From positions 1,631 through 65,630 of the forward strand of contig JBDSUM010000017.1 of assembly GCA_039927695.1 (NCBI GenBank): a stretch of 64,000 bases of DNA, in the 5' to 3' direction. Position 1 is the first letter of the stretch. The number at the start of each line of letters is the position of its first letter. Positions 38,222-54,389 of this stretch are shown here, one piece after another. The notes below the pieces were generated by a model. That model saw only the letters and a list, made by a program, of their open reading frames with translations, did not search any database and was not told the DNA's origin. The DNA is from Minisyncoccota bacterium. GTDB taxonomy: Bacteria > Patescibacteriota > Minisyncoccia > Phycocordibacterales > Phycocordibacteraceae. Made by a program: the position numbers and the translations under genes.

Positions 38222-38311
38222 TTTTGACAACGAGCATCCATCCCTATACCTTCAAGGCAGGTGCCCTTTTCTGGGAGAATTACAGTGATACGAGGAAGAA
38301 AGACGAAAGGT

Positions 38312-38776: not shown

Positions 38777-38877
38777 TTTTTTTATTGCATTTTTCTAACA
38801 ATATTGGGTAATCCACAGGGTGCCCCAAAACTCCTAGAATTAAAGCTACCATTAGGTATACCCATAAAAGGAACGTC

Positions 38878-39009
38878 ATGGATTACACCCAAGAAGGTGA
38901 AGAAATTCCTGAGCCACCAAAGGAAAGTTCTGGTTCTGGGAAATTGCTTTTCGCAGCTGCTGCAATAGTCGTTCTCCTTGGAATATTGTTCGTTGCTATC
39001 AAGTGGTAA
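38878..39009 (+). CDS. possible small membrane protein (43 aa)
   Basis: Below the track cut-off. AAAGGAACG RBS-like sequence lies 3 nt before the ATG. Encodes one clean TM helix. Confidence 0.35.
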   Translation: MDYTQEGEEIPEPPKESSGSGKLLFAAAAIVVLLGILFVAIKW

Positions 39010-39078
39010 TTATCGATAGTAAAAGTTAAGTCTCCGCGAGATATCATCAAAACCAGCAAATCGTTATAGAATAGTTCC

Positions 39079-39843
39079 ATGAAGATTGTTTCATGGAATG
39101 TGAACGGACTACGTGCCGTGCACCGCAATGGGTATTGGGAAGCTTTTCTCCGTGGTACCAAACCCGATATTTTTTGTTTTCAGGAAGTAAAAGCCGAACC
39201 GCAACAACTGCCTGACGAGGTACGAGAAGTGGCCGGCTTTTCTTCTTTCTTCTCCCCTTCTCTAGGCAAGAAGGGATACAGCGGCGTGGCGTTGTATTCA
39301 CGGGTTGAACCCCTGAAAGTTATATATGGAATGGGAATAAAAGAATTTGATGACGAAGGTCGATTAATTGGCGCAGAATATGAGGATTTCTGGCTTTTAA
39401 ATATATATTTTCCCAATGGCGGACGAGGTCCGGAACGACTAGATTTTAAACTTCGATACTATGAATCATTTTTAGCTTTCTGCGAAGGGCTGCGCAAAAG
39501 CAAACCTGTTATTTTCTGTGGAGATATAAACACAGCACACTTCCCCATTGACCTCGCTAGACCTAAGGAGAATCAGAATACAACAGGCTTTTTACCTATC
39601 GAACGTAAATGGATGGATGAGCTACTAGAGGCAGGATATGTTGATACATTCCGCCATTTTTATCCACAACAGAGCGAGATATACAGTTACTGGGATACTT
39701 TTACGCATGCACGTGAACGAAACGTTGGTTGGCGCATTGATTATTTTTTTGTTGTAAAAGAATTTCTTAAACATATTAAAAAGGCTGAGATTCATACTGA
39801 AATATATGGATCAGACCACTGCCCTATTTCAATAACACTCTAA
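39079..39843 (+). CDS. xth: exodeoxyribonuclease III
   Basis: MKIVSWNVNGLRA start. EEP nuclease motifs GDINTAH and SDHCPI. Confidence 0.9.
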   Translation: MKIVSWNVNGLRAVHRNGYWEAFLRGTKPDIFCFQEVKAEPQQLPDEVREVAGFSSFFSPSLGKKGYSGVALYSRVEPLKVIYGMGIKEFDDEGRLIGAEYEDFWLLNIYFPNGGRGPERLDFKLRYYESFLAFCEGLRKSKPVIFCGDINTAHFPIDLARPKENQNTTGFLPIERKWMDELLEAGYVDTFRHFYPQQSEIYSYWDTFTHARERNVGWRIDYFFVVKEFLKHIKKAEIHTEIYGSDHCPISITL

Positions 39844-40191
39844 AGGACACTTATCCCCATAGATGTCCTTTACTATGTCCTATACCAGCGTAGTATCAAT
39901 TAAAGACGGGGAGCGGCAAGGACTGTGAAGTATTTGCCGGTTCTCGAAATCGGCTGATCTTTGTGAGTTCTTTGTGCGAAATATCAGGCGCGCTTGTGTG
40001 GAAGCACTATACTCAGCTCACCCGTTCGGGAGGATTCCCTGAAAATTAAGCGAGCTAGACCAATAGAAAAGGTTCCACATGAAACCGCAACAATAAAAGC
40101 TTTCAGGACAATCTAAAGTACTAAGGATCACCAATTCCTTTGCCCCAAGCTCCCAATTTGGTCCTTAGTCAGTCCCATCTAGCTTAAAGCC

Positions 40192-40248
40192 AAGAGGCCG
40201 TGCAGAGCGATTTCAGTTGACTGGAATCCCTCTTCACGGCCTCTTTTT
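40192..40248 (+). terminator. strong hairpin terminator ending a candidate ncRNA
   Basis: AAGAGGCCGTG / CACGGCCTCTT 11-bp stem with a 32-nt loop, followed by TTTTT. Confidence 0.5.
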
Positions 40249-40281
40249 ATAGTATATGTTGCTAAGTATAAGCTTAACAAC

Positions 40282-40309
40282 AAAAAACGACGTAAGTACG
40301 TCGTTTTTT
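40282..40309. terminator. bidirectional terminator
   Basis: AAAAAACGACGTAAGTACGTCGTTTTTT. Confidence 0.5.
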
Positions 40310-40378
40310 GTTGTTTCACGTGAAATACGTCGCTGAAACAGGCACTATTCCTTTTCACGTGAAACAGGCAAAGAAACT

Positions 40379-41842
40379 TTAACAAACGTGATGTTTATCT
40401 AGAATCTTCTGTATTTCCTCTTCCTCCTTCTCTTCACGCTTCTTTTTCCCAATATCGCCTAGTTTCTTAAGGTTTTCGTCAGTTAACCCTAACAGTGAGG
40501 CCGATTGAGCGTCCAAATACTCCTCGGTGTTTCTCGTAGGATCCTCAAGAACTTCTTCCAGCAGCGCATTTAATAGCCATCCTAGCCGTGGACCAGGTTT
40601 CATGTGGAACTTCTCCATTATGTGAGCCCCGTCAGTTTTGAGCATTGCTACTGAGATTGGATCACGTAGTGCTTCCTCAACCATTGCCTTGTATTTGCGG
40701 AACCTAAAAGGCTGTTCCTTAGGACGTCCTGTACCTATGCGATCGCATATACGTAGATTAAGTAAATCCCATATATTCTCCTCGCCAACGTTACGAATCA
40801 TACGGCGAACGGCTGAAAGGGTAATCTGGTCAGGATCAGAGAAGAACATGTGCCAACGCACCATTTTAGTCACTTTTTCAATAGTTTCACGTGAAAATTT
40901 AAGATCCTCAAGAGCCTTTTTTGTTACACGAGCGCCCACAACTTCATGACCATGGAATGTCCAATCATTCTTCTTTGGTTCCCATCTGCGGACTTCAGGC
41001 TTAGAAACATCATGAAATACTGCTGCTAAGCGAATATCAAAACTCCACTCCTTATCTGCTGCGTGCTGAAGGGAACGCATTAGATGACCAAAGACGTCGA
41101 AGCTATGAGCTTGATTTTGTTCGATACCTATTCCTCGAGTGAGGTCCGGGGCTATGTATTCTAAAAGACCTAATTGCTGAGCCATTACTAGCGCCATCAT
41201 AGGCTGGCTTGAATTAAGGATACGAACAAATTCATCCCGTATACGCTCTTTAGAGATATGGCCAAGATTGGCTGCTTTCTGTTGAATAGCTGCAGCAGTC
41301 TCTGTATCAAGTGCGAATTCAAGTTCAGCAACCAGTCTAACTGCACGCATTAGACGCAATGCGTCTTCTTCGAATCGCTCAGAAGGAACTCCTACCGTGC
41401 GCAACACCTTGAGTTCAATGTCCCTTTGTCCTTTATACGGATCAATTAACTGTCCTTTAGATTCGTCATATGCGATTGCGTTAATAGTGAAGTCTCTACG
41501 AGCGAGATCTTCTTCAAGGCTCTGTCCGAATGTAACGGCATCAGGTCTGCGTTTATCGCTATACACGCTCTCGGTACGGTAGGGAGTTACTTCAATGATT
41601 TTAAGTCGCTCATCATCAGTTTCACGTAGAACACCGACGGTTCCAAAGTCGTTAGTATAAAAGGAATCAGGGAATATACGCTGTATATCCTCAGGCTTAG
41701 CGTTTGTAGTGATGTCCCAGTCCTTTGGACGACGATCTATTAACAGGTCACGCACACAACCACCAACCAAGTAGGCTTCAAAGCCCTCGTTGCGAAGTCC
41801 TTCGGCAACATCGCGTACTTCTTTGGGGACACGGAATTCCAT
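40379..41842 (-). CDS. cca: CCA-adding tRNA nucleotidyltransferase with HD domain
   Basis: GGCVRDLL...DWD polymerase-beta head motif. HD-domain-like C-terminal half. Confidence 0.85.
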   Translation of the reverse strand: MEFRVPKEVRDVAEGLRNEGFEAYLVGGCVRDLLIDRRPKDWDITTNAKPEDIQRIFPDSFYTNDFGTVGVLRETDDERLKIIEVTPYRTESVYSDKRRPDAVTFGQSLEEDLARRDFTINAIAYDESKGQLIDPYKGQRDIELKVLRTVGVPSERFEEDALRLMRAVRLVAELEFALDTETAAAIQQKAANLGHISKERIRDEFVRILNSSQPMMALVMAQQLGLLEYIAPDLTRGIGIEQNQAHSFDVFGHLMRSLQHAADKEWSFDIRLAAVFHDVSKPEVRRWEPKKNDWTFHGHEVVGARVTKKALEDLKFSRETIEKVTKMVRWHMFFSDPDQITLSAVRRMIRNVGEENIWDLLNLRICDRIGTGRPKEQPFRFRKYKAMVEEALRDPISVAMLKTDGAHIMEKFHMKPGPRLGWLLNALLEEVLEDPTRNTEEYLDAQSASLLGLTDENLKKLGDIGKKKREEKEEEEIQKILDKHHVC

Positions 41843-41922
41843 TACCTAAATACTAGTACGCTGCTGTGCTTTCGCCTAGCGTGTAGTACAGTAGCTAATA
41901 CGGCAGCAAAGCAAAGCCGATT

Positions 41923-41994
41923 GCCCCTGTAGTGAAATGGATATCACAACAGTCTTCGGAACTGTCGTTCCAGGTTCGAATCCTGGCGGGGGCA
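41923..41994 (+). tRNA. tRNA-Arg (anticodon TCG)
   Basis: Cloverleaf folded by hand: acceptor GCCCCTG/CGGGGGC, D GTGA/TCAC, anticodon stem ACAGT/ACTGT with loop CTTCGGA, T CCAGG-TTCGAAT-CCTGG. No encoded CCA. Confidence 0.8.
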
Positions 41995-42035
41995 CTAGAA
42001 AAAAGGGAAGTACCTGTGCTATAGTTCTTCCCGTA

Positions 42036-42109
42036 GCGGATATGGTTTAGTGGTAAAACACGTCCTTGCCAAGGACGAATCGGGAGTTCGATTCTCCCTA
42101 TCCGCACCA
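42036..42109 (+). tRNA. tRNA-Gly (anticodon GCC), CCA encoded
   Basis: Acceptor GCGGATA/TATCCGC. Anticodon stem CGTCC/GGACG with loop TTGCCAA. T-arm GGGAG-TTCGATT-CTCCC. Confidence 0.8.
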
Positions 42110-42116
42110 GTCAGAT

Positions 42117-42137
42117 AAAAGCCCTATAGGGGCTTTT
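42117..42137 (+). terminator. terminator hairpin after the tRNA pair
   Basis: AAAAGCCCTATAGGGGCTTTT. Confidence 0.5.
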
Positions 42138-42150
42138 ATCGTTGTGGATC

Positions 42151-42669
42151 CTACTTTTTGTCTCTCTTCTTAATACTGATACCGATACCTGCATTTTCAG
42201 TAACGTAGACAATAGCATTGCTAAGTAATGCAGGGTCATCTTTAAACTGACCGATTCCAATATTACAGTTTGAACACAGGAGGCCTCGAACGACCATGGT
42301 CTTATGACAATGATCTAGGACTGGTCTCTTCATTGGAACGCGGCATATGCCGCACAAGCCATTCTGTCGTTCAAATAACTCTGCATATAGCTGTCTATAA
42401 GGTCCTGCAGTACCAAACTGCTGAGTCAGCTTTTTATCTTCTAGACATTGGACGCAACAAGTTCTATTTTCAGCAGCAGGTCTTTTGGTACAACTTGGAC
42501 ATATCCCGCGAGCTTTAAAATCTGCCTTTCTTTTTCGTTGGTATTCTAAAAAATGTTGTCTTTGCGCCTCTGTTCTCCAGTTATTTGCCATGTATTGAAT
42601 ATACCACAGTCTGAGTTTGTGGAAATGCAAACAGGGGAAAAGTCTGTTAGTAGTGGGGATAACGGACAT
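42151..42669 (-). CDS. endonuclease VII (phage-type Holliday junction resolvase, HNH-like) domain protein
   Basis: GLCGICRVPM...VLDHCHKTMVVRGLLCSNCNIGIGQF matches the Endonuclease_7 signature. The true start may be the internal Met at 42591. Confidence 0.65.
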   Translation of the reverse strand: MSVIPTTNRLFPCLHFHKLRLWYIQYMANNWRTEAQRQHFLEYQRKRKADFKARGICPSCTKRPAAENRTCCVQCLEDKKLTQQFGTAGPYRQLYAELFERQNGLCGICRVPMKRPVLDHCHKTMVVRGLLCSNCNIGIGQFKDDPALLSNAIVYVTENAGIGISIKKRDKK

Positions 42670-42747
42670 ACGTCTTAGAAAGAATTCAGAAGAATTTTAG
42701 AATTATCAACTGATTCCTTCAGCAACTAAGCCATATTATTTAAGGTC

Positions 42748-43143
42748 ATGAATCTTAGTAAATCTTCACGTAAAGACATTGGAAACTTAGGAGAACGTGT
42801 AGCGGCAGAATACCTGCGCAGGCTTGGCTTCTCAATAATAGGAAGGAATATTGCTTTTAAAACTGGTGAGCTCGATGTCATGGCTCTAAACGAAAATACA
42901 CTGCATATTGTAGAAGTTAAGACTGTCGTATGTGTAGAATTTCCAAATTTAGAATCTCAAGACAGCGGGTACGATCCCGCATGGAATCTGCATCCATATA
43001 AGATACGCAAAGTTCGTAGGACAGCAGAGTGGTATGTGGCAGATAAAAACTGGGAAGGGGAGTGGCAAATTGATGGCGCTCTCGTGTGGCTACGTCAGAG
43101 CGATGGTATGGCTCGAGTCCGCTATTACCCGCAGATTGTATAA
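42748..43143 (+). CDS. YraN (UPF0102) family endonuclease
   Basis: GNLGERVAAEYLRRLGFSII...ELDVMA...IVEVKT motifs. Confidence 0.7.
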   Translation: MNLSKSSRKDIGNLGERVAAEYLRRLGFSIIGRNIAFKTGELDVMALNENTLHIVEVKTVVCVEFPNLESQDSGYDPAWNLHPYKIRKVRRTAEWYVADKNWEGEWQIDGALVWLRQSDGMARVRYYPQIV

Positions 43144-43222
43144 ACACATAGACCTTATACGAAAACCTGGTAGGATGAGCAAAACAGGGGACTCAGAGCT
43201 ATCTGCAGTCCACTCTGTCATT

Positions 43223-43296
43223 CGGGGTGTCGTATACCGGTAGTACGACTGCTTTGGGAGCAGTTAGACGGGGTTCAATTCCCCGCACCCCGACCA
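43223..43296 (+). tRNA. tRNA-Pro (anticodon TGG), CCA encoded
   Basis: Acceptor CGGGGTG/CACCCCG. Anticodon stem ACTGC/GCAGT with loop TTTGGGA (G37). T-arm CGGGG-TTCAATT-CCCCG. Confidence 0.75.
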
Positions 43297-44921
43297 ATTG
43301 AGACATTAAGAGCGCAAAGCTCATCAAAGGGTGAACAAAGCTTTGCATTTACTACTTCTTTTCCTTGAATTTCAAAGTTCAAGTAGATTTTTCGCAATAT
43401 ATAGTCCTGCTCACTCAACTTCTTTAATGAACGTATATTCTTTGCCATGTTTTCCATAAGTTCAAGGAAGTCGCCATAAGCAAGTACATCAGACTTTCCA
43501 ATCTCGGCCTCGATACGCTTTTGGGCTATGGAATTTTCAATCTGCTTTATCTCAGAGCCGGCCCTGTCCAGATCGTCCTTAAATGTCGATTGAATGCGCT
43601 CATCTGCAATATTATCGAGTAGCAAATTCTTCGTCTTTTCGTATCTGCTCTCTACGATCCGCTTTTTGCGTAATAGGTTTGCAAGCTCAGTTCTTGCAGT
43701 AGAACTTCTCTCATCAGAAACATGTTCCATTTCTTTTAAATAATGCTTATAGGAAGCGGTAGATGAAAAAGGATTCTTTGCAAGAAATGCATATACGTAA
43801 TCAAGTATCACCTTTGCTCTTATAGATTTACCATACATATCACAATCGTCTGTTTCGCATCGGTAGTAGAAGTAATTAGTTTTCTTACCAGCTTTATTAA
43901 CCTTTGAGGTAATTCCAGCAATCATAGATTCCCCGCAATCCTTACAGATAATCATGCCGCGCATCAAGTCAGCTTTAACGTTCTCCGTGGTCCTAAAGCG
44001 GCGTGCAAGCTTACTAATTTCAGAGGTACGAGACACTTTATTTATAGCCATGAATTCTTCAACAGATACCATGGGTACAAAATCATACGCTTGAGTTAAA
44101 TCTACTTTCTGTTTTCCGTATATAACTACGCCCGCATAAAAAGGATCACGAAGTATCTTATCTATTTTCTGAGCAGTCCAATGAAAAGGGGAGTGACTAC
44201 TATCACTATTAGATCGCTCATATCCCATTTTATTTAAATAGGAGGCAATCTCTGAATAGGTTTTCTTATCACGACGCATTAGAAAGGCCTCTTTCAAAAG
44301 GATAAAATTATCCTTGTCTGGCCAAAGAAACTGATTTCTATCTTTATAATATCCGTGTTTAGGCCTGCTGATATATTTTCCTTCAGCAATGCTTCTTCGG
44401 TTTCCACGATTAACATTATCGCTAAGACTGTCTGAATATTGCTTTGATAGAACGAACGTCATACCTAGTAGCATTTTTCCACTGGTACTATTTTCAAAGG
44501 TGAAGCTTACAAACTTCAGATCTTTAATAATGTGTTTATCGATAAGATCAATCACCTCGCCCGCATCTTTCATGTTCCGAGCTAACCGATCGGGATGCCA
44601 AGCGATAATTCCGTCATATTTCTTAGACTTCACTCCATCAAGCACCTCTCTGAATCTTGGTCGAATATCAGGCTCCTTTGCTGATTCTGATTCTTCGATT
44701 ACCTTAACAACCTTGAGTTTTAATTGTGCAGCCAAATGCTCACACTCACTGATTTGGTCAGCGAGGGAACGTATCTGCTTTTCAGCATCATCAGTAGATT
44801 TTCTTACATAAATAACGTAACGATACGTTTGGGAAGCGTCGTTGTTATCGGCCTTTTGAAAGCCCTTTAATAGTTCAAATAATTGTTCTGTGGTCTGAGG
44901 GTCGTTCATTAGGCTAATCAT
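43275..44921 (-). CDS. large serine recombinase (phage-type integrase)
   Basis: N-terminal resolvase domain YVRKST...SLADQ. Recombinase domain and Cys-rich zinc ribbon CKDCG...YYRCETDDC. The 3' end overlaps tRNA-Pro by 22 nt. Confidence 0.85.
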   Translation of the reverse strand: MISLMNDPQTTEQLFELLKGFQKADNNDASQTYRYVIYVRKSTDDAEKQIRSLADQISECEHLAAQLKLKVVKVIEESESAKEPDIRPRFREVLDGVKSKKYDGIIAWHPDRLARNMKDAGEVIDLIDKHIIKDLKFVSFTFENSTSGKMLLGMTFVLSKQYSDSLSDNVNRGNRRSIAEGKYISRPKHGYYKDRNQFLWPDKDNFILLKEAFLMRRDKKTYSEIASYLNKMGYERSNSDSSHSPFHWTAQKIDKILRDPFYAGVVIYGKQKVDLTQAYDFVPMVSVEEFMAINKVSRTSEISKLARRFRTTENVKADLMRGMIICKDCGESMIAGITSKVNKAGKKTNYFYYRCETDDCDMYGKSIRAKVILDYVYAFLAKNPFSSTASYKHYLKEMEHVSDERSSTARTELANLLRKKRIVESRYEKTKNLLLDNIADERIQSTFKDDLDRAGSEIKQIENSIAQKRIEAEIGKSDVLAYGDFLELMENMAKNIRSLKKLSEQDYILRKIYLNFEIQGKEVVNAKLCSPFDELCALNVSIGRGAGN

Positions 44922-44956
44922 AGCTCTATGAGCCCTAATTTGCCTCGTGTGGGGCC

Positions 44957-45160
44957 TTAACGGCTTCTGCTCTCCACTAGTTGCTCAGCTGTAATAACTC
45001 CTCTAGCGGATGTCTGATTTAGATTGGCCATTGTGTCCCTAACTTCTAAAGATGAATCCATAATGGAAAGGAAACTAATGCCACTTATAATAAACAGAAT
45101 AACGACGACTACGGGCGTGGGAATTGATACCTTGGCCCAATTTTTGTTTTCAGTATTCAT
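44957..45160 (-). CDS. small membrane protein
   Basis: 67 aa with one TM helix. Sits upstream of the recombinase. Confidence 0.3.
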   Translation of the reverse strand: MNTENKNWAKVSIPTPVVVVILFIISGISFLSIMDSSLEVRDTMANLNQTSARGVITAEQLVESRSR

Positions 45161-45899
45161 ATTTTGCTTGATTGGTCTTTAATACCCGCTAGGTTCTGGA
45201 CACAAAGAACCCGCCACGGGTCCCCAGCATTGCTGCCAGGCATACCGGTTTCCCGATATGGCCAATCAAGCTACCCCATGACGGGTTCTTTATGCTTGAT
45301 TGGGCTTGCGACCATATCTCCTGTTGCCAGAAGGGTTAGGTCATTTTATTCGATTGTGTCCTTGCTCAGCATACCTTTTACGTAGGCATGAAACCAGTTA
45401 AAAAGGTTGAAAAGTACCCAAAAACTGTTTTGCCAGAATTAAGTTATCGAGAATATAAGCCAGATTTTCTACCTAACTTTTAATAGTTTTCGGAGCTCTC
45501 CTTTTTAGAAAACACCTCAAGAAGTATCCTCAAGATCACTGATTTTACCTGAGAAAACTATTGTGAAGAATTTAAAATAACCAAGGATATAAGGGATTTT
45601 TGCATACCGACATAGCCTAGTTTTCCCGACTTACCGTTTAATGCCTCAGGCTCCAAATGTCGAGTAATCTAATTGCTATACGGAGGATAAATTTTATAGT
45701 GCGCTCTCTCCACAGTGTCATAAATATTAAACAATATAAACTATAAGAAGAAAGGCCGCGTCTTGCGACACAGCCTTTCCAAATATTATCTTCGTACGCT
45801 AGTTGATTGCCTGGCAAGGCTGCTGTCGTACGATGACCTTGGACACCTTTCTATAATACGATAAGGATCTGAGGCAAACGTGCTTTATACACATTAGTT

Positions 45900-46187
45900 A
45901 TGGCTATTAGAATAACTTGCATTAATAAGGATTCCGGAAACCATGCCAATCGTCACACTGCGATTAGTCGTCTTGGTTGGATTCAAGATGGCACCTCAGA
46001 CAAGAAGTACAACACTAGGCTCGAGATGTATGACTTTGTTAAAGATGGTGGTAGGGCATATGTGCTTGATAGCCAGGGGGACAAAGCGTATCTCATGACA
46101 GCTATTACAGTTGGAGGTACAAAATACGTTAAGACCGTCGCAGATGAGACACGGGCAGATAACCTGCTTTCTCTTCCCGAATGCTAA
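45900..46187 (+). CDS. DUF3892 domain protein
   Basis: MAIRITCINKDSGNHANRHTAISRLGW...YVKTVADETRADNLLSLPEC matches DUF3892 members as I recall them. TATAAT and an AAGGA RBS lie upstream. Confidence 0.55.
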   Translation: MAIRITCINKDSGNHANRHTAISRLGWIQDGTSDKKYNTRLEMYDFVKDGGRAYVLDSQGDKAYLMTAITVGGTKYVKTVADETRADNLLSLPEC

Positions 46188-46208
46188 AGCGTTAGGAAAT
46201 ACGGTATG

Positions 46209-46241
46209 AATAAGGTCCTCGGAGTTTCCGAGGACCTTATT
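46209..46241. terminator. bidirectional terminator
   Basis: AATAAGGTCCTCGGAGTTTCCGAGGACCTTATT perfect hairpin. Confidence 0.6.
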
Positions 46242-47142
46242 CTTTATCAGGATGGACCGACTTTTCTATGATTTCTGCCAATCCATCAGGAAGTGATGCA
46301 TTCTTTCGCTGCCTCTCAGTAAGGTAATTTTCATCAGATATCACCCGTCTCCCAGTTTGCAGTTCAATCTCCTGTCGAGCTTTACCAGCAATACCACCTC
46401 CACTTTTAGAAGCCTGGAGATTTTCAAACATTCCCTGGGAATTTCTGACTTTTGCAATTTCTGTAGTAGCTTGCTCCCCAAGAGTGGTGAGAGTAAGTTC
46501 GATTGGAGTCATGTGGTCACGCAATGGTTGGCCTGCCAATCCTTTTATCTCCTTATGCTTAGAGGTCTTCACCCCGAAGGTTTCTATTGAAATCGCATCG
46601 GTCAAAATAGCATATTGTTTTCCTTCTATTCCTCTTTCTTTCCACTCTAACTCGAGCTTCCCGCGCGCAGCCTTATTTTGAATTCGGGCCTCAATCCAAT
46701 CAGGTGGATATCCCTTGGCCGCGTAATAGGCCATAGCGCGAGTTATGGCGAGTTCTGGGTTTGCTATTTCCTGTATGCGCTCAAACCCAACCTTAGCTAA
46801 CCATTTTTTAAAAGCTTCTGATTTTTCTCCCGTAGTAACAGACTGCATCAAACGGAAGATACCTTCAATATTTATGAAAGTTGTCTCTTGAAGACCGCGA
46901 TTCGATTGGTATTTTAAGGTCCTCGTGATTTCCGAGTACCTTTCATTCAGTCCCGGGTCCTTTTTTCTTAGATCAGACGCATACCGAGTACCATCTGTTG
47001 TATCTGTAAGAGCTTCAAGAACATCCTTTACTGAAAACCACCACTCCCCACCATCAAATACTTTTCGCACCTCTTTAGTTTTAAAGAGATCTATTTTAAA
47101 CTCACCGTCCTTTGCAAAGGGTAATGTAGGCTGTTCTCCCAT
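46237..47142 (-). CDS. BRO-N domain protein (phage antirepressor-like)
   Basis: FKIDLF..VRKVFDGGEWWFSVKDVLEAL...GLQETTFINIEGIFRLMQS...AFKKWLAKV follows the Bro-N pattern. ATG at 47142; the ORF-track start is TTG. Confidence 0.55.
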   Translation of the reverse strand: MGEQPTLPFAKDGEFKIDLFKTKEVRKVFDGGEWWFSVKDVLEALTDTTDGTRYASDLRKKDPGLNERYSEITRTLKYQSNRGLQETTFINIEGIFRLMQSVTTGEKSEAFKKWLAKVGFERIQEIANPELAITRAMAYYAAKGYPPDWIEARIQNKAARGKLELEWKERGIEGKQYAILTDAISIETFGVKTSKHKEIKGLAGQPLRDHMTPIELTLTTLGEQATTEIAKVRNSQGMFENLQASKSGGGIAGKARQEIELQTGRRVISDENYLTERQRKNASLPDGLAEIIEKSVHPDKE

Positions 47143-47213
47143 TAATCGTATTGTATCAGAGCTCGAACACAAGGAGAATTTAGCAACAACAGCCTCTCAA
47201 TAGGTTCTAGACT

Positions 47214-47242
47214 TGACAATATTTATTATATGTACTAAAATA
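47214..47242 (+). promoter_or_regulatory. near-consensus sigma70 promoter (TTGACA-17-TAAAAT)
   Basis: Read directly. GGGAG RBS 9 nt before the ATG at 47289. Confidence 0.45.
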
Positions 47243-47288
47243 CACTCAGCCGCTCTTTGGCAACACAGTCTATACAGGGAGTCACCAA

Positions 47289-48239
47289 ATGCGTCGCTAT
47301 ATGCTCATAGCCGGCCTTATTATCATCACCGCACTCTTCTTCGGATGGAACCACTTCCATTCGATGACGGACGTGGACAACCTCGTCGTCGCGACGATGC
47401 CCTATGTCGCGGACAATGGCGACATTGTCGTTACCGGCAACCAAATGGCCAACCAGCCGCTGCCACAACCGACCGGCATCCTGCCGATCTGGCTCTGGCT
47501 GCTCGCCATGGCAGTCTGGTACTTCCTCTGCTGGATCAACATCGTGAACGAATGGGAGCGCCGCCCGGTGCTGCTGTTCGGCCGCTATGTGAAGACGCTC
47601 GGCGCAGGCCTCGGCTTCGTCGAACCAATCTTCTACAGCACCCTCGACGACGTGCCCGTTCAGGACATCGTCATCGAGGTCGAGGTGCCCGAGGTTCAGA
47701 CCAAGGACAACGTGGGTATCGCCCTCACCGGCGTTCTCACATATCGCATTAGCGAAGATCGGGTCAAGGACTCGGTCGTCCAGGTCGAAGACGTCTATGA
47801 CAGCGTGCTGGAGCGTTCCTTCTCCACGCTCACCGACGTCGCCGCGACCAACGAGCTCGACCAGCTTCTCGAACATCGTGACGCGTTCTGCATTGCCATC
47901 ATGGCGAAGCTTGCAGAACGGGTCGCTGGCTGGGGCGTGGTGGTCAACGCGTTCGAGCTGAAGTCCTTCAGCATCAACGACGAAGCGGTCGAGCAGGCAA
48001 TCGCCATGAAAGCTCGAGCCGCCAAGGAAGGTGCGGCCGAACTCGTTCGCGCTGAGATGCAGGAGAAGATCGCGGAGGCACTCAACAAGGCCGCCACGAC
48101 CTACACCGAAGAAGGGCGCTGGCTCAAGGGAACCGAGGTCATGCTCGAACTGTGCCGCTCTGGCCAGAACAACACGATCCTCATCCCGACGGACATCACC
48201 GAGTCGCTCGCCAAGCTGCGGCCCCTGATTTCCGGCTGA
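47289..48239 (+). CDS. SPFH/band-7 (stomatin/prohibitin-like) membrane protein, GC-rich foreign-looking CDS
   Basis: N-terminal TM. SPFH core INIVNEWERRPVLLFGRYVKTLGAGLGFVEPIF. GC content and GC3 far above the surrounding genes. TGA stop. Confidence 0.75.
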   Translation: MRRYMLIAGLIIITALFFGWNHFHSMTDVDNLVVATMPYVADNGDIVVTGNQMANQPLPQPTGILPIWLWLLAMAVWYFLCWINIVNEWERRPVLLFGRYVKTLGAGLGFVEPIFYSTLDDVPVQDIVIEVEVPEVQTKDNVGIALTGVLTYRISEDRVKDSVVQVEDVYDSVLERSFSTLTDVAATNELDQLLEHRDAFCIAIMAKLAERVAGWGVVVNAFELKSFSINDEAVEQAIAMKARAAKEGAAELVRAEMQEKIAEALNKAATTYTEEGRWLKGTEVMLELCRSGQNNTILIPTDITESLAKLRPLISG

Positions 48240-48266
48240 AGCACTACCAAGATTGTTGCAAAACCT

Positions 48267-48304
48267 ATACCCACCAGAAGTAATTCTGGTGGGTATATTC
48301 TTTT
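48267..48304 (+). terminator. rho-independent terminator
   Basis: ATACCCACCAGAAGTAATTCTGGTGGGTAT plus T-run. Confidence 0.6.
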
Positions 48305-48346
48305 AAATCAACTCACTATCCCTATAGTTCAAGAGAATCTATCTAT

Positions 48347-48505
48347 ATAGAATCTTCTTGTCCAAGAGTAATAACTTCGCCGTCATTACTCATCACTTGC
48401 TGACTTATTTCCTCAGGAGGCGCATTATCTGGTGTTTCCGGAGCTTCTACTGGTAATGCTTCTACCACGTCTGTGAAATTATCTTTTTTGTGTTCATCCA
48501 TATAT
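48347..48505 (-). CDS. possible small acidic protein (52 aa)
   Basis: Manual translation: MDEHKKDNFTDVVEALPVEAPETPDNAPPEEISQQVMSNDGEVITLGQEDSI. Below the track cut-off. Confidence 0.2.
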
Positions 48506-48518
48506 TTGTAGTTTAGCA

Positions 48519-48851
48519 CTAAAGCTTTACTTCAAAACTAGCTTCTTCGCGCTCTCTTGCCATAAAATCCCGTACTTCCTCGTTCCATAACTGAATAGGC
48601 TGATAGTTGGCATAAATGACTCCAAATAGTTCAAGTGAAGTACTCTCATGCCGACCAATTGTGTTCTCTTTAGAAAAAAGAAAACCGCCTCTTACGAAGC
48701 GGTTGGATAGTTTTGTTTCTGTTGCCAAGCGGGGTATCAGCCCGCTCCGATGTCCAGATGTTACTCCGGAACGCTCTCCATGAACTTCTGGAAAGACTGA
48801 CAGATGTTCCTCTTGGTGAGGGAATCTGAGCCAATCTCTCCAGTTGCCCAC
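48519..48851 (-). pseudogene. possible frameshifted 3' continuation of the 48761-49369 ORF
   Basis: Overlaps the upstream ORF by 90 nt in a different frame. Its only start is GTG. The downstream two-thirds looks protein-like. A homopolymeric A-run lies nearby. Confidence 0.25.
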
Positions 48852-49369
48852 TTTTGAGTCGCGACTATCACATCCTCATATCCGAGCCAGCCTTCTCGGC
48901 GATCGGATTGACGAAGAATAGTCCGGTGTACACCCTCGATGGCATAGCCAGTGAACTTCTGTTCACTAACCATGTTCACGCAGAGGATTTTCCGTACGGG
49001 AATTCGCACACGCTTGGGCGAATTCTCATACGTGTACACATCTGACTCAAAGCGCGCTGTCACCGCTATCTTCTCGGGGTAGAAATCCGACATCGGATTC
49101 TTCCCATCGAAAATGGTGTGCCTGGACACCACTTTCTGTGAAGATTTATGGTCATACGCGTAGAGAACGGCCTCTTTCCGAACACCACCAGTCGACCCCC
49201 ACGAACTCTCGAACGCGAGAATGAAGGTGGTGTTCAGAAAGGGCACATACAGGGTGTCCACTACTATGGAACTGTCGCCGATATGGACATGGTAGTCCAC
49301 CAGCAACGTTCCCTTGTCGTGGATCTTGACCCAGGAATGGGCCTCGGCGATCTGGCTCTGTTGGGTCAT
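48761..49369 (-). CDS. hypothetical protein (202 aa)
   Basis: Protein-like composition. No recognisable domain. Confidence 0.4.
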   Translation of the reverse strand: MTQQSQIAEAHSWVKIHDKGTLLVDYHVHIGDSSIVVDTLYVPFLNTTFILAFESSWGSTGGVRKEAVLYAYDHKSSQKVVSRHTIFDGKNPMSDFYPEKIAVTARFESDVYTYENSPKRVRIPVRKILCVNMVSEQKFTGYAIEGVHRTILRQSDRREGWLGYEDVIVATQKWATGEIGSDSLTKRNICQSFQKFMESVPE

Positions 49370-49597
49370 GGCTATTCTCCTTCAGGAAGCGAGGCAGGAT
49401 TGCCTCAAGCGAAGTCAATGTCCTTTGAATCTGAGAACACTATACTTAGCTTGGAGCTAATTGTCAAGTATAAAGACAATTAATATGACTATATATTGAT
49501 TAATATAAGACATAAAATAAAGCATATTCGCACATATTCATCCATTTATCATCAAAAATATTGACTAAATAATGATATTGCCTATATACTTACTTAT

Positions 49598-50344
49598 ATG
49601 GATATTTCCGAATCTCTCGCTACGCTTGGGTTGAATGAGAAACAATCAGCGATCTATGTAGCACTGCTTCAACTGGGGCGGGGAAGTGCATACTCGATTG
49701 CAGACAAGGCAGGTATTAAAAGACCAACTGCATATGTGATTCTTGGTGAGCTTTTTGAAAAAGGTTTGGTATCTCAAGTGCCGCGTGTTCGTAAGAAGCT
49801 GTACGTTGCTGTGTCACCAGAACAAGCTTTTGCCTCTGCAGATGAGAAACTCACACTTGCAAAGGAAAAACTGCCTGAGCTGCTTGCGATGACAAAGGGA
49901 GCTGATTCGAAAGTCAGCGTACTTTTCTTTGAAGGCATAAAGGGGATAAAGCAGGTAATGGAATATAAGCGTGACGAAGATAAGGGAAAGGAGTTCGTTG
50001 GTTTCTACGCCACGAGTGCGAATGTGCCAAAAGAACTGACTGAGTACTTTGACGAGTGGAATGAAAAGAATCGCAGGAGAAAGATTACTATGCGCGGTAT
50101 CGTGCCTGACCACGATTCGCTTGAACAATACCGAGAGAACGATGAGCGACACGGTCGTCGCATGAAAGTAGTTTCTCACAGCGAATTATCGTCAGAAGTA
50201 GCAATTGATATTTCTGAGAGAATCGTGCGTATCCATGACTATAAGAACCTGCAGGGAATTGCCATTGAGAATGCTGATGTCGCGAAAACATTGCGTGAAG
50301 TATTTGAGATGTTATGGAGTCGTATCCCTGATCAAAAGCTATAG
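49598..50344 (+). CDS. TrmB family HTH transcriptional regulator
   Basis: LGLNEKQSAIYVALLQLGRGSAYSIADKAGIKRPTAYVILGELFEKGLV winged HTH. TTGACT/TATATACT promoter-like sequence upstream. Confidence 0.65.
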   Translation: MDISESLATLGLNEKQSAIYVALLQLGRGSAYSIADKAGIKRPTAYVILGELFEKGLVSQVPRVRKKLYVAVSPEQAFASADEKLTLAKEKLPELLAMTKGADSKVSVLFFEGIKGIKQVMEYKRDEDKGKEFVGFYATSANVPKELTEYFDEWNEKNRRRKITMRGIVPDHDSLEQYRENDERHGRRMKVVSHSELSSEVAIDISERIVRIHDYKNLQGIAIENADVAKTLREVFEMLWSRIPDQKL

Positions 50345-50381
50345 GCAAGTTGAGGCAATATATGGTATCCTCGCTTCTGAA

Positions 50382-50455
50382 GCGGGATTAGTTTAATGGT
50401 AGAACTACAGTTTTCCAAACTGTTAGCAGGAGTTCGATTCTCCTATCCCGCACCA
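50382..50455 (+). tRNA. tRNA-Gly (anticodon TCC), CCA encoded
   Basis: Acceptor GCGGGAT/ATCCCGC. Anticodon stem ACAGT/ACTGT with loop TTTCCAA. T-arm AGGAG-TTCGATT-CTCCT. Confidence 0.8.
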
Positions 50456-50485
50456 AATAGGAATTAGGTATGATGCGATATACTG

Positions 50486-50845
50486 ATGAGCATGGAATCT
50501 AATCCGCTTAATAAGGCGCCAAAACAAGCGAGTCCTGAAAAGGGTCTCTCGCCTGAAGGTCTCCAGGTTTTGCGGGACGCTGTACCCGTTCTTCAAGCGC
50601 GAATGGCACTAATTGATCGCAAAGACCAAGAGGGGACTTCTGAGAGCGATAATGAGAACTACGATCGCAATGATCCGCAACGACAAGAAGCACTTATGAA
50701 TTGGGCGACTGGTGGTATGGCTGCAAAATTTCGAGACTACGTTGAAGACCCATTACACGCGACTGAAACTATAAATCCCGATAATCCGGAAGAACTCAGA
50801 GCTCTTTTGCAGAAACTGCGAAGTGAATCAGATACTATGCACTAG
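50486..50845 (+). CDS. hypothetical acidic protein
   Basis: 119 aa. No recognisable domain. Confidence 0.4.
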   Translation: MSMESNPLNKAPKQASPEKGLSPEGLQVLRDAVPVLQARMALIDRKDQEGTSESDNENYDRNDPQRQEALMNWATGGMAAKFRDYVEDPLHATETINPDNPEELRALLQKLRSESDTMH

Positions 50846-50871
50846 AGTATTAAATGTTTGGATACAGAAAC

Positions 50872-50898
50872 AAAAGAGCGACCTGCTGTCGCTCTTTT
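50872..50898 (+). terminator. rho-independent terminator
   Basis: AAAAGAGCGACCTGCTGTCGCTCTTTT. Confidence 0.55.
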
Positions 50899-50928
50899 GT
50901 TTTGTCGCGAGAGGCGTACAATTTTTGT

Positions 50929-52134
50929 ATGGAACCCCTCGCATCTCGTCTACGTCCGAAATCCCTCAACGACTTCGTTGGGCAAGAACACCTTGTTGGA
51001 GAAGGGAAGCCACTTCGCGTTGCTATAGAGAAGAAGCATCTGTTCTCATTCGTCCTGTGGGGGCCTCCAGGCACCGGTAAGACCACTATCGCCCGAATAT
51101 ACGCCAATGCCCTAGATGCAGAGCTACACGAGCTCTCAGCGGTTTCTGCAGGGAAAGAAGACATACGTAGAATCGTAGAAGGAGACGCTCCAAAGAGTCG
51201 TAGCAAGAAGGCTGAGCAAGTACCATTTGAGTCAGATGCTTTTCGTGGCAAACCAAAACTATTGTTCCTCGACGAAATTCATCGTTTCAATAAAAGCCAG
51301 CAGGATTTCTTACTTCCATACGTTGAGAGCGGTGTACTCACACTTATAGGAGCAACTACAGAGAACCCTTCGTTTGAGATTATCCCAGCGCTCCTTTCTC
51401 GCAGTCGAGTTTTTGTACTTGAACCACTTGGTGAGGAAGCACTCCGAGCAATTCTAAAGCGCGCGAAACTTAAACTCGGCAAAGATGCATTTGAATGGCT
51501 TCTTGGGTATGGAAATGGCGACGCGCGTAAAGTACTCACACTTTTGGATAGTGTGATGGAGTTGTACGGAAAGATTACCGTCGAGACGCTTAATAAAGCT
51601 CTTGAGTCACCGCACCTGCGTTACGACAAGAAAGGTGACGAACACTACGATACTATCTCTGCATTTATTAAAAGCATGCGCGCATCGCAACCAGACGCTG
51701 CGGTCTATTATCTTGCACGCATGGTTGAAGCTGGTGAAGACCCGCTATTTATTGCACGACGTATGGTTATCTTCGCGTCTGAAGACATAGGGCTCGCACA
51801 ACCAACGGCACTCGTTGTAGCAAACGCAGTCTTCCGCGCATGTGAGACTATTGGTTACCCCGAGTGCGCAATAAATCTCGCGCATGGTGTCGCGTACCTC
51901 GCTAACTGCAAGAAGACGAAGTCAGCATATGAAGCATTGCGCGCTGCTCAGGCAGACATTCGTACGTATGGTAACCTCCCGATCCCAAAGAAGATTCGTA
52001 ATGCTCCTACTAAACTTATGAAAGAACTGGAGTATGGAAAGGGGTATGAGCGATACGATGATGAAAGTTATATGCCCGATAAGTTGAAGAACAAGAAATA
52101 TTTTCCTGATACAAAAGAAAACCGCGTCGACTAG
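50929..52134 (+). CDS. rarA: replication-associated recombination protein A (RarA/MgsA AAA+ ATPase)
   Basis: [19 protein letters not shown] and [10 protein letters not shown] motifs. ATG at 50929, within the longer ORF-track frame. Confidence 0.85.
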
Positions 52135-52158
52135 CGACGCGGCAGATATTCGAGGGGC

Positions 52159-52563
52159 TTACCCAGGTACGGAAATCGAGAGTTGCGGATCGTCGTCAGT
52201 GCTCGTATAGATACCGTCCTCAATCATGACCGTGTAAGGAGCTGCGATCGAAAGATGAGGGGTCATTGGAGGCACAACGATGCGATCACCAGTTGAAACT
52301 GCATATTCACCTGTTTCGTCCCGAAATATCCCATGACCGGCGGTAACCAGAACTATGGTCATGCCGGCGTGCATATGTAGGTGGTCTTCGGTATCACGTA
52401 CTTCGATCCGTACGATGTGACTCACCAGCTGCTTGCCAGTCCTTGCAGCGGCTTCTGCAAGCGCGCTCAAGACTTGAGTTGGGTAATGGAACGAATGCGA
52501 TTCTTCCGAACCCACAAAATGCTTAGTGTATTCGCCTGGACGAATGATTAGACACTGGGGCAT
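52159..52563 (-). CDS. cupin domain protein
   Basis: HxH...E...H-like beta-barrel motif region HMHAGMTIVLVTAGHG. 134 aa. Confidence 0.5.
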   Translation of the reverse strand: MPQCLIIRPGEYTKHFVGSEESHSFHYPTQVLSALAEAAARTGKQLVSHIVRIEVRDTEDHLHMHAGMTIVLVTAGHGIFRDETGEYAVSTGDRIVVPPMTPHLSIAAPYTVMIEDGIYTSTDDDPQLSISVPG

Positions 52564-52659
52564 ACATTTCTCCTGTTTTCCTATCAGCCACCGAGATTTC
52601 AGTGGCTGAATAAGAAGGGCGACTACAGCTAGGTCGCCCTCAGGTCAGGTCAAGTACAA

Positions 52660-53064
52660 TCACTTGATCTTCATAACGTTAAAGATTCTGCCGACCTGCA
52701 CGAAACCTTTGTCGCCGGCCTCTTGTGCAAGCTGATGTAGTTGCCGGTACTCGGCAATGGGTTTTTCGGACTCTACTTCTAGGGTGATCGGAGATTCCGC
52801 TCCTCGCGTATCCCAGCCAGAAGCAAAGACCCAGTACGAACCGCCGAGATCAGATTCTTTTTCGAACTCCCATACCGAGATCAATTCCACATCGTCTGCC
52901 ATGTCTCCGCCTTCTTCAGCGCTATAAGCAGACAGAGCAAGATACTTGAAACCCTGTACAGTGATTGGTTCTCGGAGCCAGTGCTGGACAACTTCAAGGC
53001 TATACATGTCATGCCGTACATTGCCCTTGTACGGGATTATCGTTGCAAGAAAGCGAGTTGCCAT
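52660..53064 (-). CDS. hypothetical protein
   Basis: ATG at 53064 has AGGAGA upstream. The longer ORF-track frame overlaps the next gene. Confidence 0.4.
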   Translation of the reverse strand: MATRFLATIIPYKGNVRHDMYSLEVVQHWLREPITVQGFKYLALSAYSAEEGGDMADDVELISVWEFEKESDLGGSYWVFASGWDTRGAESPITLEVESEKPIAEYRQLHQLAQEAGDKGFVQVGRIFNVMKIK

Positions 53065-53114
53065 TGGAATTCTCCTAAATGCATTTCTTCGATCTGGAAG
53101 CAGCGTGGCCCCTG

Positions 53115-53528
53115 TCACAACAGAGGGGCGAGACGCGGATATTTTCTCTTGAATCGAAGATAGGCGTGACGCTTTTCGCGATCCAGAAGACATTGCAGCC
53201 GATTAATCCTTGCCTTGACCCAGATTGCGATTAACAATATTGCACTCAAGAGAAATATGAACGCATATACTCCTGGAAATCCGCCCAGCATTCGTTGGAA
53301 TATTCCTAAGGTGGCAAACCACCCAACGAATAGTGGAGAATAGGCAAGAGTCTGCAATATTCCCTGATGATAGTGAGCCGGCCCTCTCGGATAGTTTCTC
53401 CACAGAAACTGCGCAGTGGCTCGCGCGGCAATTCTTTCGCGAACGACTCTCCTATAAAGGTCAGGATCACCCATTTGACGCGCCCACGCGTCTGGCATCA
53501 GATAGGTATACATATTTAATTCCTTCAT
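53115..53528 (-). CDS. membrane protein
   Basis: Two or three TM helices. No recognisable domain. Confidence 0.4.
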   Translation of the reverse strand: MKELNMYTYLMPDAWARQMGDPDLYRRVVRERIAARATAQFLWRNYPRGPAHYHQGILQTLAYSPLFVGWFATLGIFQRMLGGFPGVYAFIFLLSAILLIAIWVKARINRLQCLLDREKRHAYLRFKRKYPRLAPLL

Positions 53529-53626
53529 AAATCAAAGAACCCGTTTATCTTGAATCATTTTTATGATTTGTCAAAATATGTCGAACAATTGTTGACAAAG
53601 ATTCGACAACATACTAGCGTAAAGGA

Positions 53627-54385
53627 ATGGATGAGCAATTACTTACTTCTCTGGGACTCAATGAGCGAGAAATTAAGCTATATCGAGCGGTATTAGGAGC
53701 TAAAGAACTTACACCTATTGAATTGGCAAAGAATGCGGGTATTAAAAGAACAACAGCTTACAGTGCTGCACGTTCCTTGGTGGAGAAAGGATTACTTATC
53801 GAAGATTCAAGTAGGCGTCCTAAAGTCTTTCGGCCGTCCATGCCAGAGGACATAAATATTACAATTGAAACTGAACGCAAACGTTCTGAAGAAAGACAGC
53901 AAATTTTAAAACAACTTTCTGAAAACGTTGCGGTGGCAAATCAACAAGTCACATATCCGATTCCGCGCATTAAATTTATAGAGGGTTCAAAACTAGAGCA
54001 ATACTTTAAGCAAGCGTTTCCGCTTTGGATTCAAAGCATGGAGGATTCAGGTGACTATGGGTTATGGGGATTTCAGGACTCAACCCTTGTTGACGTGTTT
54101 GAAAATCAATTACATCGGTGGTGGAAAATCGTTCCTGCTGAATCTGAAGTCTACCTCCTAACAAATCTTTCAGGAGGAGAGAAACGATTTAAGGGACAAT
54201 ATGAGAGAAGGCATATGAAATATTGGGGAGAAGCTACTGATTTTATTTCCAGTACCTGGGTCGCGGGCGATTATATGGTTATCATTAACACACGAACCAA
54301 ACCTTTCTACGCGATAGAAATACATTCACGACCGTTAGCACACGACCAACGCGAAGTATTTAGAAACTTGTGGCCTTTGGTGTAA
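53627..54385 (+). CDS. TrmB-like HTH transcriptional regulator (paralogue of 49598-50344)
   Basis: LGLNEREIKLYRAVLGAKELTPIELAKNAGIKRTTAYSAARSLVEKGLL. Confidence 0.6.
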   Translation: MDEQLLTSLGLNEREIKLYRAVLGAKELTPIELAKNAGIKRTTAYSAARSLVEKGLLIEDSSRRPKVFRPSMPEDINITIETERKRSEERQQILKQLSENVAVANQQVTYPIPRIKFIEGSKLEQYFKQAFPLWIQSMEDSGDYGLWGFQDSTLVDVFENQLHRWWKIVPAESEVYLLTNLSGGEKRFKGQYERRHMKYWGEATDFISSTWVAGDYMVIINTRTKPFYAIEIHSRPLAHDQREVFRNLWPLV

Positions 54386-54389
54386 GTCT

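Follow-up and report, generated by a model that had tools for sequence, protein, structure and literature searches.

A small integrative element at a tRNA-Pro gene of a Patescibacteria bacterium, with attP inside the reading frame of its serine integrase

In a 64,000-nucleotide stretch of a Minisyncoccota genome (GenBank assembly GCA_039927695.1, contig JBDSUM010000017.1; hereafter the window), the gene of a large serine recombinase ends within a tRNA-Pro gene and has nucleases, further tRNAs and genes common in phages as neighbours. Which part of this locus is inserted DNA, and why does the recombinase gene run into the tRNA? We read window positions 43290-48661 as an integrative element of Patescibacteria (Candidate Phyla Radiation, CPR), inserted at the 3' end of tRNA-Pro(TGG) by its own serine integrase, with the attachment site attP inside the integrase open reading frame (ORF), integrase isoforms that depend on the state of the element, and variable cargo (probability about 0.85). 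The element is a minimal integrative island of a Candidatus Paceibacterota bacterium; its boundaries, its presence/absence polymorphism, its ORF architecture and its recurrence across the family are observed directly.

Boundaries of the element and the empty site

The gene of the neighbouring CCA-adding enzyme (40379-41842) matched exactly in Logan contigs of three sister runs. In two of these contigs, L001 (97 kb, SRR26386596) and L002 (SRR26386594), YraN and tRNA-Pro are directly followed by the genes for a 202-amino acid (aa) protein and a TrmB regulator. Alignment with BLAST showed 100% identity of L001 and L002 to window positions 30379-43300 and 48651-57203, the two aligned parts overlapping by 11 bp, and only 43301-48661, an insert of 5,361 bp, is absent from these empty-site contigs. 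With both copies of the core included, the element spans 43290-48661 and is bounded by 11-bp direct repeats of CCGACCAATTG. A repeat of 11 bp is unable to collapse an assembly with k=31, and the empty site is therefore real. The occupied distal junction was assembled independently in the third sample, where contig L004 (SRR26386601) corresponds to window 44142-48735. Target and junctions are as follows:

43223-43296, plus strand: tRNA-Pro(TGG), the integration target, left intact (ARAGORN; Rfam tRNA, 57.7 bits; identical in the empty-site contigs)
43290-43300: tRNA-proximal junction, copy 1 of the core CCGACCAATTG (overlap of the L001/L002 alignments, 100% identity)
48651-48661: distal junction, copy 2 of the core CCGACCAATTG (L001/L002 alignment; junction spanned independently by L004)

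The proximal core copy consists of the last 7 nt of tRNA-Pro (CCGACCA, including the encoded CCA) and 4 further nt. The flanks of the two junctions are alike only in the identical 11-bp core, and the insertion is a simple one without long repeats. The GC content of the element is 0.441, close to that of its flanks (0.466). The attachment sites have the following layouts:

attB: CCCCGCACC-CCGACCAATTG-TGTTCTCTTTAG
attL: CCCCGCACC-CCGACCAATTG-AGACATTAAGAG
attR: GTACTCTCATG-CCGACCAATTG-TGTTCTCTTTAG
attP: GTACTCTCATG-CCGACCAATTG-AGACATTAAGAG

Near-clonal populations either carry the whole element or lack it cleanly. EndoVII, YraN, the 202-aa gene, TrmB and tRNA-Gly(TCC) are all retained in the empty-site contigs, and we therefore assign them to the host. 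An initial annotation made from the sequence had treated 42151-50455 as one tRNA-flanked accessory unit and had counted the two nucleases, the TrmB regulator and tRNA-Gly(TCC) as its parts; the inserted DNA is restricted to 43290-48661. Its suggestion of an integrative element at a tRNA has held, since empty-site alleles exist in the two sister samples.

The same annotation considered a decayed prophage. In its broadest version, a prophage or composite island would cover all of 42151-50455, and a single phage-derived insertion would have left the nucleases, the integrase, BRO-N, SPFH and TrmB as its remnants. Phages commonly encode EndoVII, BRO-N and DUF3892 (PHROG matches), and several tRNAs are clustered at the locus. 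A composite island, however, is contradicted by the empty-site contigs, which keep the genes named above. As to a prophage, searches of Pfam and PHROGs detected no capsid, tail, terminase, lysis or replication genes in the 5.4 kb of the element, related elements measure only 2.5-9.3 kb, and the integrase family is almost absent from IMG/VR, where 2.9 million contigs gave only 2 distant matches with 35% identity. With its clean presence or absence between populations, the element is highly improbable as a remnant of this kind.

The split integrase gene and its relatives

The stop codon of the recombinase (TGA, 43277-43275) lies 22 nt within tRNA-Pro, just as the initial annotation had placed it. 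This overlap is not incidental, as it puts attP inside the integrase ORF. In the window the gene is found in two parts:

43275-44921, minus strand: large serine integrase, integrated form, 548 aa (Pfam; AlphaFold2 (AF2) and Foldseek of the homologue P0031)
48519-48650, minus strand: detached 3' end of the integrase, 43 codons (HESTSLELFGVIYANYQPIQLWNEEVRDFMAREREEASFEVKL) and stop (circular reconstruction; gapless alignment with the P0031 tail; tail profile)

In the integrated form, antisense tRNA-Pro supplies the last four residues (GAGN) and the stop. Joining the ends of the element in silico yielded a 587-aa integrase ORF, in which the attP core encodes the S-I-G-R of ...NVSIGR, 43 codons ahead of the stop; with the core inside its reading frame, the circular form therefore encodes a 587-aa integrase. 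The tail codons are found at 48650-48522 on the minus strand (HESTSLELF...EASFEVKL). Integration swaps the 43-aa tail for GAGN and leaves the tail, together with a small ORF, 5.3 kb away at the opposite end. The stranded tail explains what had been annotated as a possibly frameshifted gene: there is no frameshift, the 202-aa gene at 48761-49369 is intact in the empty-site contigs, and the overlapping 110-aa ORF (48519-48851) is a chimera of the host/element junction whose 3' part is the detached integrase tail. A look-up of the exact integrase protein revealed no record; the NCBI entry (P0001) uses a later start codon, M5, and has 544 aa compared with the 548 aa given here.

Pfam searches detected the Resolvase (PF00239, 6.6e-23, residues 36-183), Recombinase (PF07508, 2.1e-12) and Zn_ribbon_recom (PF13408, 5.7e-07) domains in the integrase, and Y38, R40, K41 and S42 are invariant in 28 homologues. 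An AF2 model of the homologue P0031 reached a mean predicted local distance difference test (pLDDT) score of 79, with helices 379-427 and 431-464 in the embedded coiled-coil region. A phmmer search of the PDB with the integrase gave no match and a profile search against structures matched catalytic domains only; full-length matches needed Foldseek, which aligned the P0031 model with the SPbeta (9y66, 4e-20), phiC31 (9rah) and LI (4kis) integrases. Identity to solved large serine recombinases (LSRs) is 12-17%. The modelled structure supports the integrase body as a complete LSR with catalytic domain, recombinase domain, zinc ribbon and coiled coil.

Homologues of the integrase are numerous (1,389 at E<=1e-10). 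The named top matches are all from Patescibacteria, and the 100% match is annotated as Candidatus Paceibacterota. A scan of one genome per GTDB species revealed 391 relatives; 80 loci were fetched from it, nearly all from Patescibacteria metagenome-assembled genomes and a few with other or generic labels. Of 77 loci, 65 have an integrase ORF that terminates within an antisense tRNA, of the types Pro (26), Leu (14), Val (11), Asp (4), Ala (3), Glu (3), Arg (2), Gln (1) and Met (1). The C-termini of the homologues share ...PF(D/N)EL...KVSxGG, which is followed mostly by divergent antisense-tRNA peptides (TRTP, RTRTCDL...LYQLS).

The tail of P0031 (577 aa) aligns without gaps and with equal length to the reconstructed tail of the window integrase. 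The P0031 contig, L005 (4,929 bp, Logan), has a 30-bp terminal overlap, no tRNA and an intact long-tailed integrase; it is the circular excised form of a relative, with a small ORF directly after the integrase and with a LOOT RNA. A naive longest-repeat search for distal att sites in the relatives gave many chance 9-10-mers and was therefore replaced by a hidden Markov model (HMM) of the tail, combined with a local search for the core. This HMM, built from four tails and applied at E<0.01, found 35 matches, all on the strand of the integrase. The 31 tail remnants used for mapping the elements lie upstream of the integrase without exception, and 16 remnants reach the end of the HMM no more than 2 residues from a stop. 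The elements mapped in this way (n=31) have lengths of 2.5-9.3 kb with a median of 4.3 kb, and core lengths among the relatives vary from 6 to 26 bp. In-frame reconstructions through 6-10-bp cores at the ACCA end of the tRNA (offset 0 +/- 2) gave tails of 42-45 aa with the motif T.LEL[FWY]..N.E..Q.WN..F[LMI]...[VI]x[LF]* in Leu- and Pro-targeting clades, whose integrases are 40-55% identical; tail remnants were also detected in Val- and Ala-targeting clades. Another homologue, P0058 (604 aa; L006, 535-2349), has a long divergent tail ending in FAVKVY and no 3' tRNA; it may be a fragment in the attP form or have a target other than a tRNA.

The split-gene architecture of these LSR elements is distinctive and family-wide, and goes along with the targeting of tRNA ends and a CPR host range. 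In the literature covered, which is incomplete, we found no serine integrase with attP in its own ORF and no account of this CPR integrase family.

Alternatively, both the overlap with the tRNA and the 43-aa tail could be irrelevant by-products, with attP simply adjoining the integrase, the enzyme ending at about ...KVSxGG and the rest being read-through. In the AF2 model the tail has low confidence and stands apart from the body, most homologues in databases (540-550 aa) have no tail, and in some clades the reconstructed ORF stops soon past the core. The AF2 alignment for the long-form integrase held only two tail-bearing rows, and the homologues in the databases mostly lack a tail because they were sampled in the integrated state. 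Mere read-through is difficult to reconcile with a tail whose length, frame, stop position and motifs are conserved between such divergent integrases with different tRNA targets, with HMM matches confined to the coding strand, and with the only assembled circular form carrying the tail intact. We consider a by-product improbable.

Several observations count against our reading of the element as a whole. No attP junction or circle of the window element was found, and the P0001 cluster has one member; the presence/absence polymorphism could stem from a single recent integration, and excision of the window copy is putative. Full-length first-hit tail remnants amount to only 16 of 34, and decay of some copies is possible. 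For several clades with 17-26-bp cores, the ORF stops shortly past the core in both states or could not be reconstructed, and the tail swap may not matter everywhere. In the AF2 model of P0031 the tail has a pLDDT below 50, with one helix (550-567) and no docking on the body, and thus offers no structural argument for how the tail could act. Finally, no transfer or replication function is identifiable in the element.

Small ORF, cargo and LOOT RNA

Between the integrase and its detached tail, the element carries the following genes and a hairpin, in addition to the LOOT RNA and membrane protein described below:

48343-48501, minus strand: small acidic ORF (MDEHKKDNFTDVVEALP...GEVITLG) (clustering; tblastn)
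45900-46187, plus strand: DUF3892 protein, cargo (Pfam 6.9e-11; phrog_8224; homologue in element L045)
46208-46242: perfect hairpin with 16-nt arms between the convergent DUF3892 and BRO-N genes (repeat search)
46237-47172, minus strand: BRO-N protein, cargo (Pfam Bro-N 3.6e-10; PADLOC PDC-S13 4.5e-87; phrog_15286 4e-60)
47289-48239, plus strand: SPFH/Band-7 membrane protein (Pfam Band_7 6e-24; GC profile)

The small acidic ORF directly follows the tail stop; in the excised form it comes next after the integrase gene. An alternative start codon (GTG, 48519) overlaps with that stop (TAGTG). It displays the motif KKDNxTDxVExLP...GxxIxLG and clusters with an equivalent ORF in 8 elements. A tblastn search located it in 17 further loci, in each case on the same strand as the integrase, among them the circle L005, where it stands straight after the integrase. 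Comparison with known families in Pfam and PHROGs gave no match, and we regard the small ORF as a candidate accessory or directionality factor. Many relatives encode a 135-180-aa helix-turn-helix (HTH) protein just after the small ORF, with weak similarity to HTH_23 or small terminases (phrog_2538, 8.6e-08; Sf6_terminase, 0.0012); the window element has none. In the related locus L077, a block of four genes (small ORF, HTH, signal-peptide protein and a 168-aa protein) is found twice (4083-6162 and 7936-9947) within one 7.7-kb interval upstream of the integrase; these blocks may represent tandem elements or an internal duplication.

The domain calls of the initial annotation (EndoVII, UPF0102/YraN, large serine recombinase, DUF3892, Bro-N, Band_7/SPFH and TrmB) were all recovered with Pfam. 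The BRO-N protein is a full-length member of the PADLOC candidate defence family PDC-S13. The hairpin at 46208-46242 is likely a bidirectional terminator; a copy of this palindrome with 82-86% similarity is found 700 bp off, inside the BRO-N gene (46915-46942). The SPFH gene had been noted as GC-rich, and its GC content is indeed 0.58-0.61 compared with about 0.44 locally; with a GC of about 0.60 it is probably a recently acquired cargo gene. Its nearest relatives are metagenome proteins with 72-81% identity, followed by proteins from Parcubacteria (58%) and Acidobacteriota (about 50%). No PADLOC defence model matched the SPFH protein, and a look-up of the exact protein revealed no record. It is missing from the L004 record because the gene caller picked an antisense ORF of 213 aa (47235-47876, minus strand).

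A cargo census of 119 proteins showed nearly every family only once, and the cargo is almost non-overlapping between elements. Among the cargo of the relatives are DruA, a cyclase of CBASS type, a DRT reverse transcriptase, SNase, Schlafen/AlbA and a caspase, and also peptidases, a permease and a cyclodipeptide synthase. An AriA/OLD-like ATPase is encoded on the circle L005. Among the ORFs of the window element, Pfam and PHROGs detected no replication, transfer, packaging, virion or lysis genes. Relaxase and type IV secretion system families were found neither in the window element nor among the top families of the census.

Upstream of the integrase lie an RNA and a small membrane protein:

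45223-45342, minus strand: LOOT RNA (RF03000; cmscan 82.5 bits, gathering score 46.4, model positions 1-121 of 121)
44957-45160, minus strand: 67-aa single-pass membrane protein (ORF; hydrophobic-segment score 2.92)

The 67-aa gene directly precedes the integrase and follows LOOT at a distance of 63 nt, and its hydrophobic segment agrees with the small transmembrane (TM) protein expected from the initial annotation; searches of Pfam and PHROGs gave no match for it. A 740-bp AT-rich non-coding stretch had also been described here. A 739-bp gap between ORFs does exist (45161-45899), but its AT-richness is mild (GC 0.41) and it holds the full-length LOOT RNA; for the remainder of the stretch (45343-45899) no homologue was detectable in any fetched locus.

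With a covariance model built in this analysis, LOOT was found in 25 of 83 sources (the window and 24 loci, including the circle L005). All copies but one lie upstream of the integrase, 14 of 14 are inside mapped boundaries, and the homologues show clear compensatory changes. The related locus L021 has two LOOT copies, one upstream (8868-9003) and one about 4 kb downstream (15642-15771) of an integrase whose reading frame continues into a long tail not derived from a tRNA; another element may adjoin there. LOOT loci collected from metagenomes by motif pattern have any serine recombinase in only 20 of 80 cases. These recombinases are mostly 25-35% identical to the window integrase and often divergent, at a distance of about 255-280 bp; other neighbours of LOOT are methyltransferase, SNase, TerS-like and TerL-like genes. 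A same-strand ORF follows within 120 nt downstream of LOOT in 90 of 96 instances (median 57 nt), and 63% of the ORFs after LOOT have an N-terminal hydrophobic (TM or signal) segment, compared with 19% of controls. Because a same-strand ORF starts so soon downstream and is enriched in such segments, we read LOOT as a 5' leader: in the window it is probably the leader of a transcript of the 67-aa protein and the integrase, and its genomic context suggests more generally a leader of variable membrane and secreted-protein genes in CPR mobile DNA, not a free-standing small RNA (sRNA). Rfam lists LOOT as an sRNA gene, whereas it appears leader-like here and is often found within serine-recombinase elements. 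The main text of Weinberg 2017 does not discuss LOOT. A role of LOOT as a bridge-RNA-like guide to the tRNA target was also considered and rejected: the RNAs of Pro, Val, Gln and Leu elements share the same central hairpin, their differences being limited to generic stems and tetraloops, LOOT is confined to about 30% of the elements, and most LOOT loci have no integrase of the window family.

Small size, tRNA targets and a lack of own replication and transfer genes are also features of phage satellites. The element could thus resemble phage-inducible chromosomal islands or tycheposons, with a helper phage that induces and packages it and with BRO-N and a TerS-like HTH protein serving this lifestyle. 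The similarity of the relatives' HTH protein to small terminases, the resemblance of BRO-N to anti-repressors, and the vicinity of LOOT, in other contigs from metagenomes, to genes resembling TerL and TerS fit such a lifestyle. The window element, however, has no TerS-like gene, and the TerS similarities in the relatives are weak and fit an ordinary regulator of HTH type equally well. Modules for capsid remodelling or a primase were not found, lengths of 2.5-9 kb are far below any known satellite packaging size, and no helper phage is known. We therefore regard a satellite as unlikely, and the integrative element with its own integrase as the better description.

The host DNA around the element contains the following genes:

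42151-42669, minus strand: EndoVII (Pfam)
42748-43143, plus strand: UPF0102/YraN (Pfam)
48761-49369: 202-aa gene, intact in the empty-site contigs

All four tRNAs of the initial annotation were confirmed by ARAGORN: Arg (41923-41995), Gly-GCC (42036-42109), Pro-TGG (43223-43296) and Gly-TCC (50382-50455). EndoVII lies in the interval from tRNA-Gly(GCC) to tRNA-Pro and could stem from an older insertion that has become fixed; it has a Cys-rich N-terminal extension and a weak PADLOC match to REase_II (3.1e-07). Two TrmB-family regulators of about 250 aa each (49598-50344 and 53627-54385, both plus strand) lie 3 kb apart in the host DNA and may be paralogues. A XerC/XerD-like tyrosine recombinase gene 5 kb upstream (37280-38221, plus strand; Phage_integrase 5.8e-42) is present in the empty-site contigs and is therefore a host gene unrelated to the element.

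Proposed mechanism and comparison with known systems

The serine integrase of the element would recombine attP with the 3' end of tRNA-Pro(TGG) and keep the tRNA intact. The circle is expected to express the 587-aa integrase and the small ORF on one transcript. In the integrated state, the integrase message would end in the antisense tRNA, and the small ORF would be orphaned behind a hairpin of the host:

48683-48704: host hairpin with T-runs on both sides, outside the element (terminator scan; attB sequence)

This hairpin is likely a bidirectional terminator. In the empty site it stands between tRNA-Pro and the convergent 202-aa gene, and integration shifts it 5.4 kb off; as tRNA-Pro is parted from the hairpin, read-through from the tRNA would run antisense to the integrase. 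Since both the integrase isoforms and the co-expression of the small ORF depend on the state of the element, the tail swap may act as a built-in state sensor that biases the direction of recombination or the stability of the integrase. Large serine integrases recombine attP with attB, and for excision they need a recombination directionality factor (RDF). A further, tentative proposal, which we hold to be possible but rather doubtful, is that the family sets the direction of recombination without a classical RDF, by an isoform switch that recombination itself imposes. The full-length integrase with the small protein would then be competent for attP x attB, and the tail-less integrase, no longer co-expressed with the small protein, would be excision-competent, locked or altered in its half-life. 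Natural transformation, vesicles or a helper phage are possibilities for movement between cells.

Like the phiC31, Bxb1, A118/LI, TP901-1 and SPbeta SprA integrases, the window integrase has a catalytic domain with the R-x-S-T motif, a recombinase domain, a zinc ribbon and a coiled coil, and as in known LSRs the short att sites share just a small identical stretch, here a core of 11 bp. It differs from them in its low identity to the solved enzymes and in having attP within its own ORF, so that integration alters the protein. The characterised phiC31, Bxb1, A118/LI, TP901-1 and SPbeta integrases are known to target protein-coding genes, not tRNA 3' ends. In archaea, the integrases of SSV1-type fuselloviruses have attP within the integrase ORF and a tRNA target, and the gene is partitioned on integration; these are tyrosine recombinases, whose gene is inactivated by a split into large N- and C-terminal parts. 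In contrast, the window integrase loses only its 43-aa tail and keeps all catalytic and DNA-binding domains.

The mycobacteriophages BPs and Brujita have attP in a coding sequence, with different C-terminal forms expressed from viral and integrated genomes, and in BPs integration strips a C-terminal degradation tag from the repressor (PMC3694055). The window element resembles the BPs switch in that attP lies inside an ORF whose C-terminus changes on integration (587 versus 548 aa). BPs is, however, a full temperate phage with a split repressor and a tyrosine integrase, whereas the window element has a split serine integrase, 5 kb of DNA and no rep/cro pair. By analogy with BPs, the tail might hypothetically act as a degron; the tails of the family have VKL, IRL, VAL or ISL as their last residues. 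Tycheposons of Prochlorococcus are likewise small cargo elements that integrate site-specifically at tRNA genes of a streamlined genome; a minority of them uses a large serine recombinase, and their cargo includes defence and niche genes (bioRxiv 10.1101/2020.12.28.424599). They mostly use tyrosine recombinases, often carry a primase or helicase and have partial-tRNA repeats, whereas elements of the window type have no replication genes, much shorter cores and a split integrase. That a C-terminal module can set the direction of recombination is indicated by a reported engineered fusion of phiC31 integrase with its RDF (PMC5737554). There, a complete RDF protein was appended artificially; the window tail is natural and has 43 aa, and its directional role is putative.

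Serine integrases are major tools of genome engineering, and the control of their direction is an open question. An integration that rewrites the C-terminus of the enzyme and uncouples a conserved downstream gene offers a testable, possibly RDF-independent, control of direction. With dozens of divergent members whose short att sites lie at the 3' ends of nine tRNA types, the family provides a panel of orthogonal enzyme/site pairs. A large part of bacterial diversity belongs to CPR/Patescibacteria, whose mobile elements have been little characterised. The family described here adds small, apparently active integrative elements in CPR, which could underlie integration vectors; if isoform switching holds true, these elements of 2.5-9 kb would amount to self-contained cassettes for tRNA-specific integration and to natural vectors for CPR bacteria. 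The orphan LOOT RNA gains a genomic context as a putative leader of variable membrane and secreted-protein genes in mobile DNA. The cargo of the family, with DruA, CBASS cyclase, DRT reverse transcriptase, PDC-S13 and OLD/AriA-like ATPase, indicates that single defence genes are shuttled between ultrasmall genomes.

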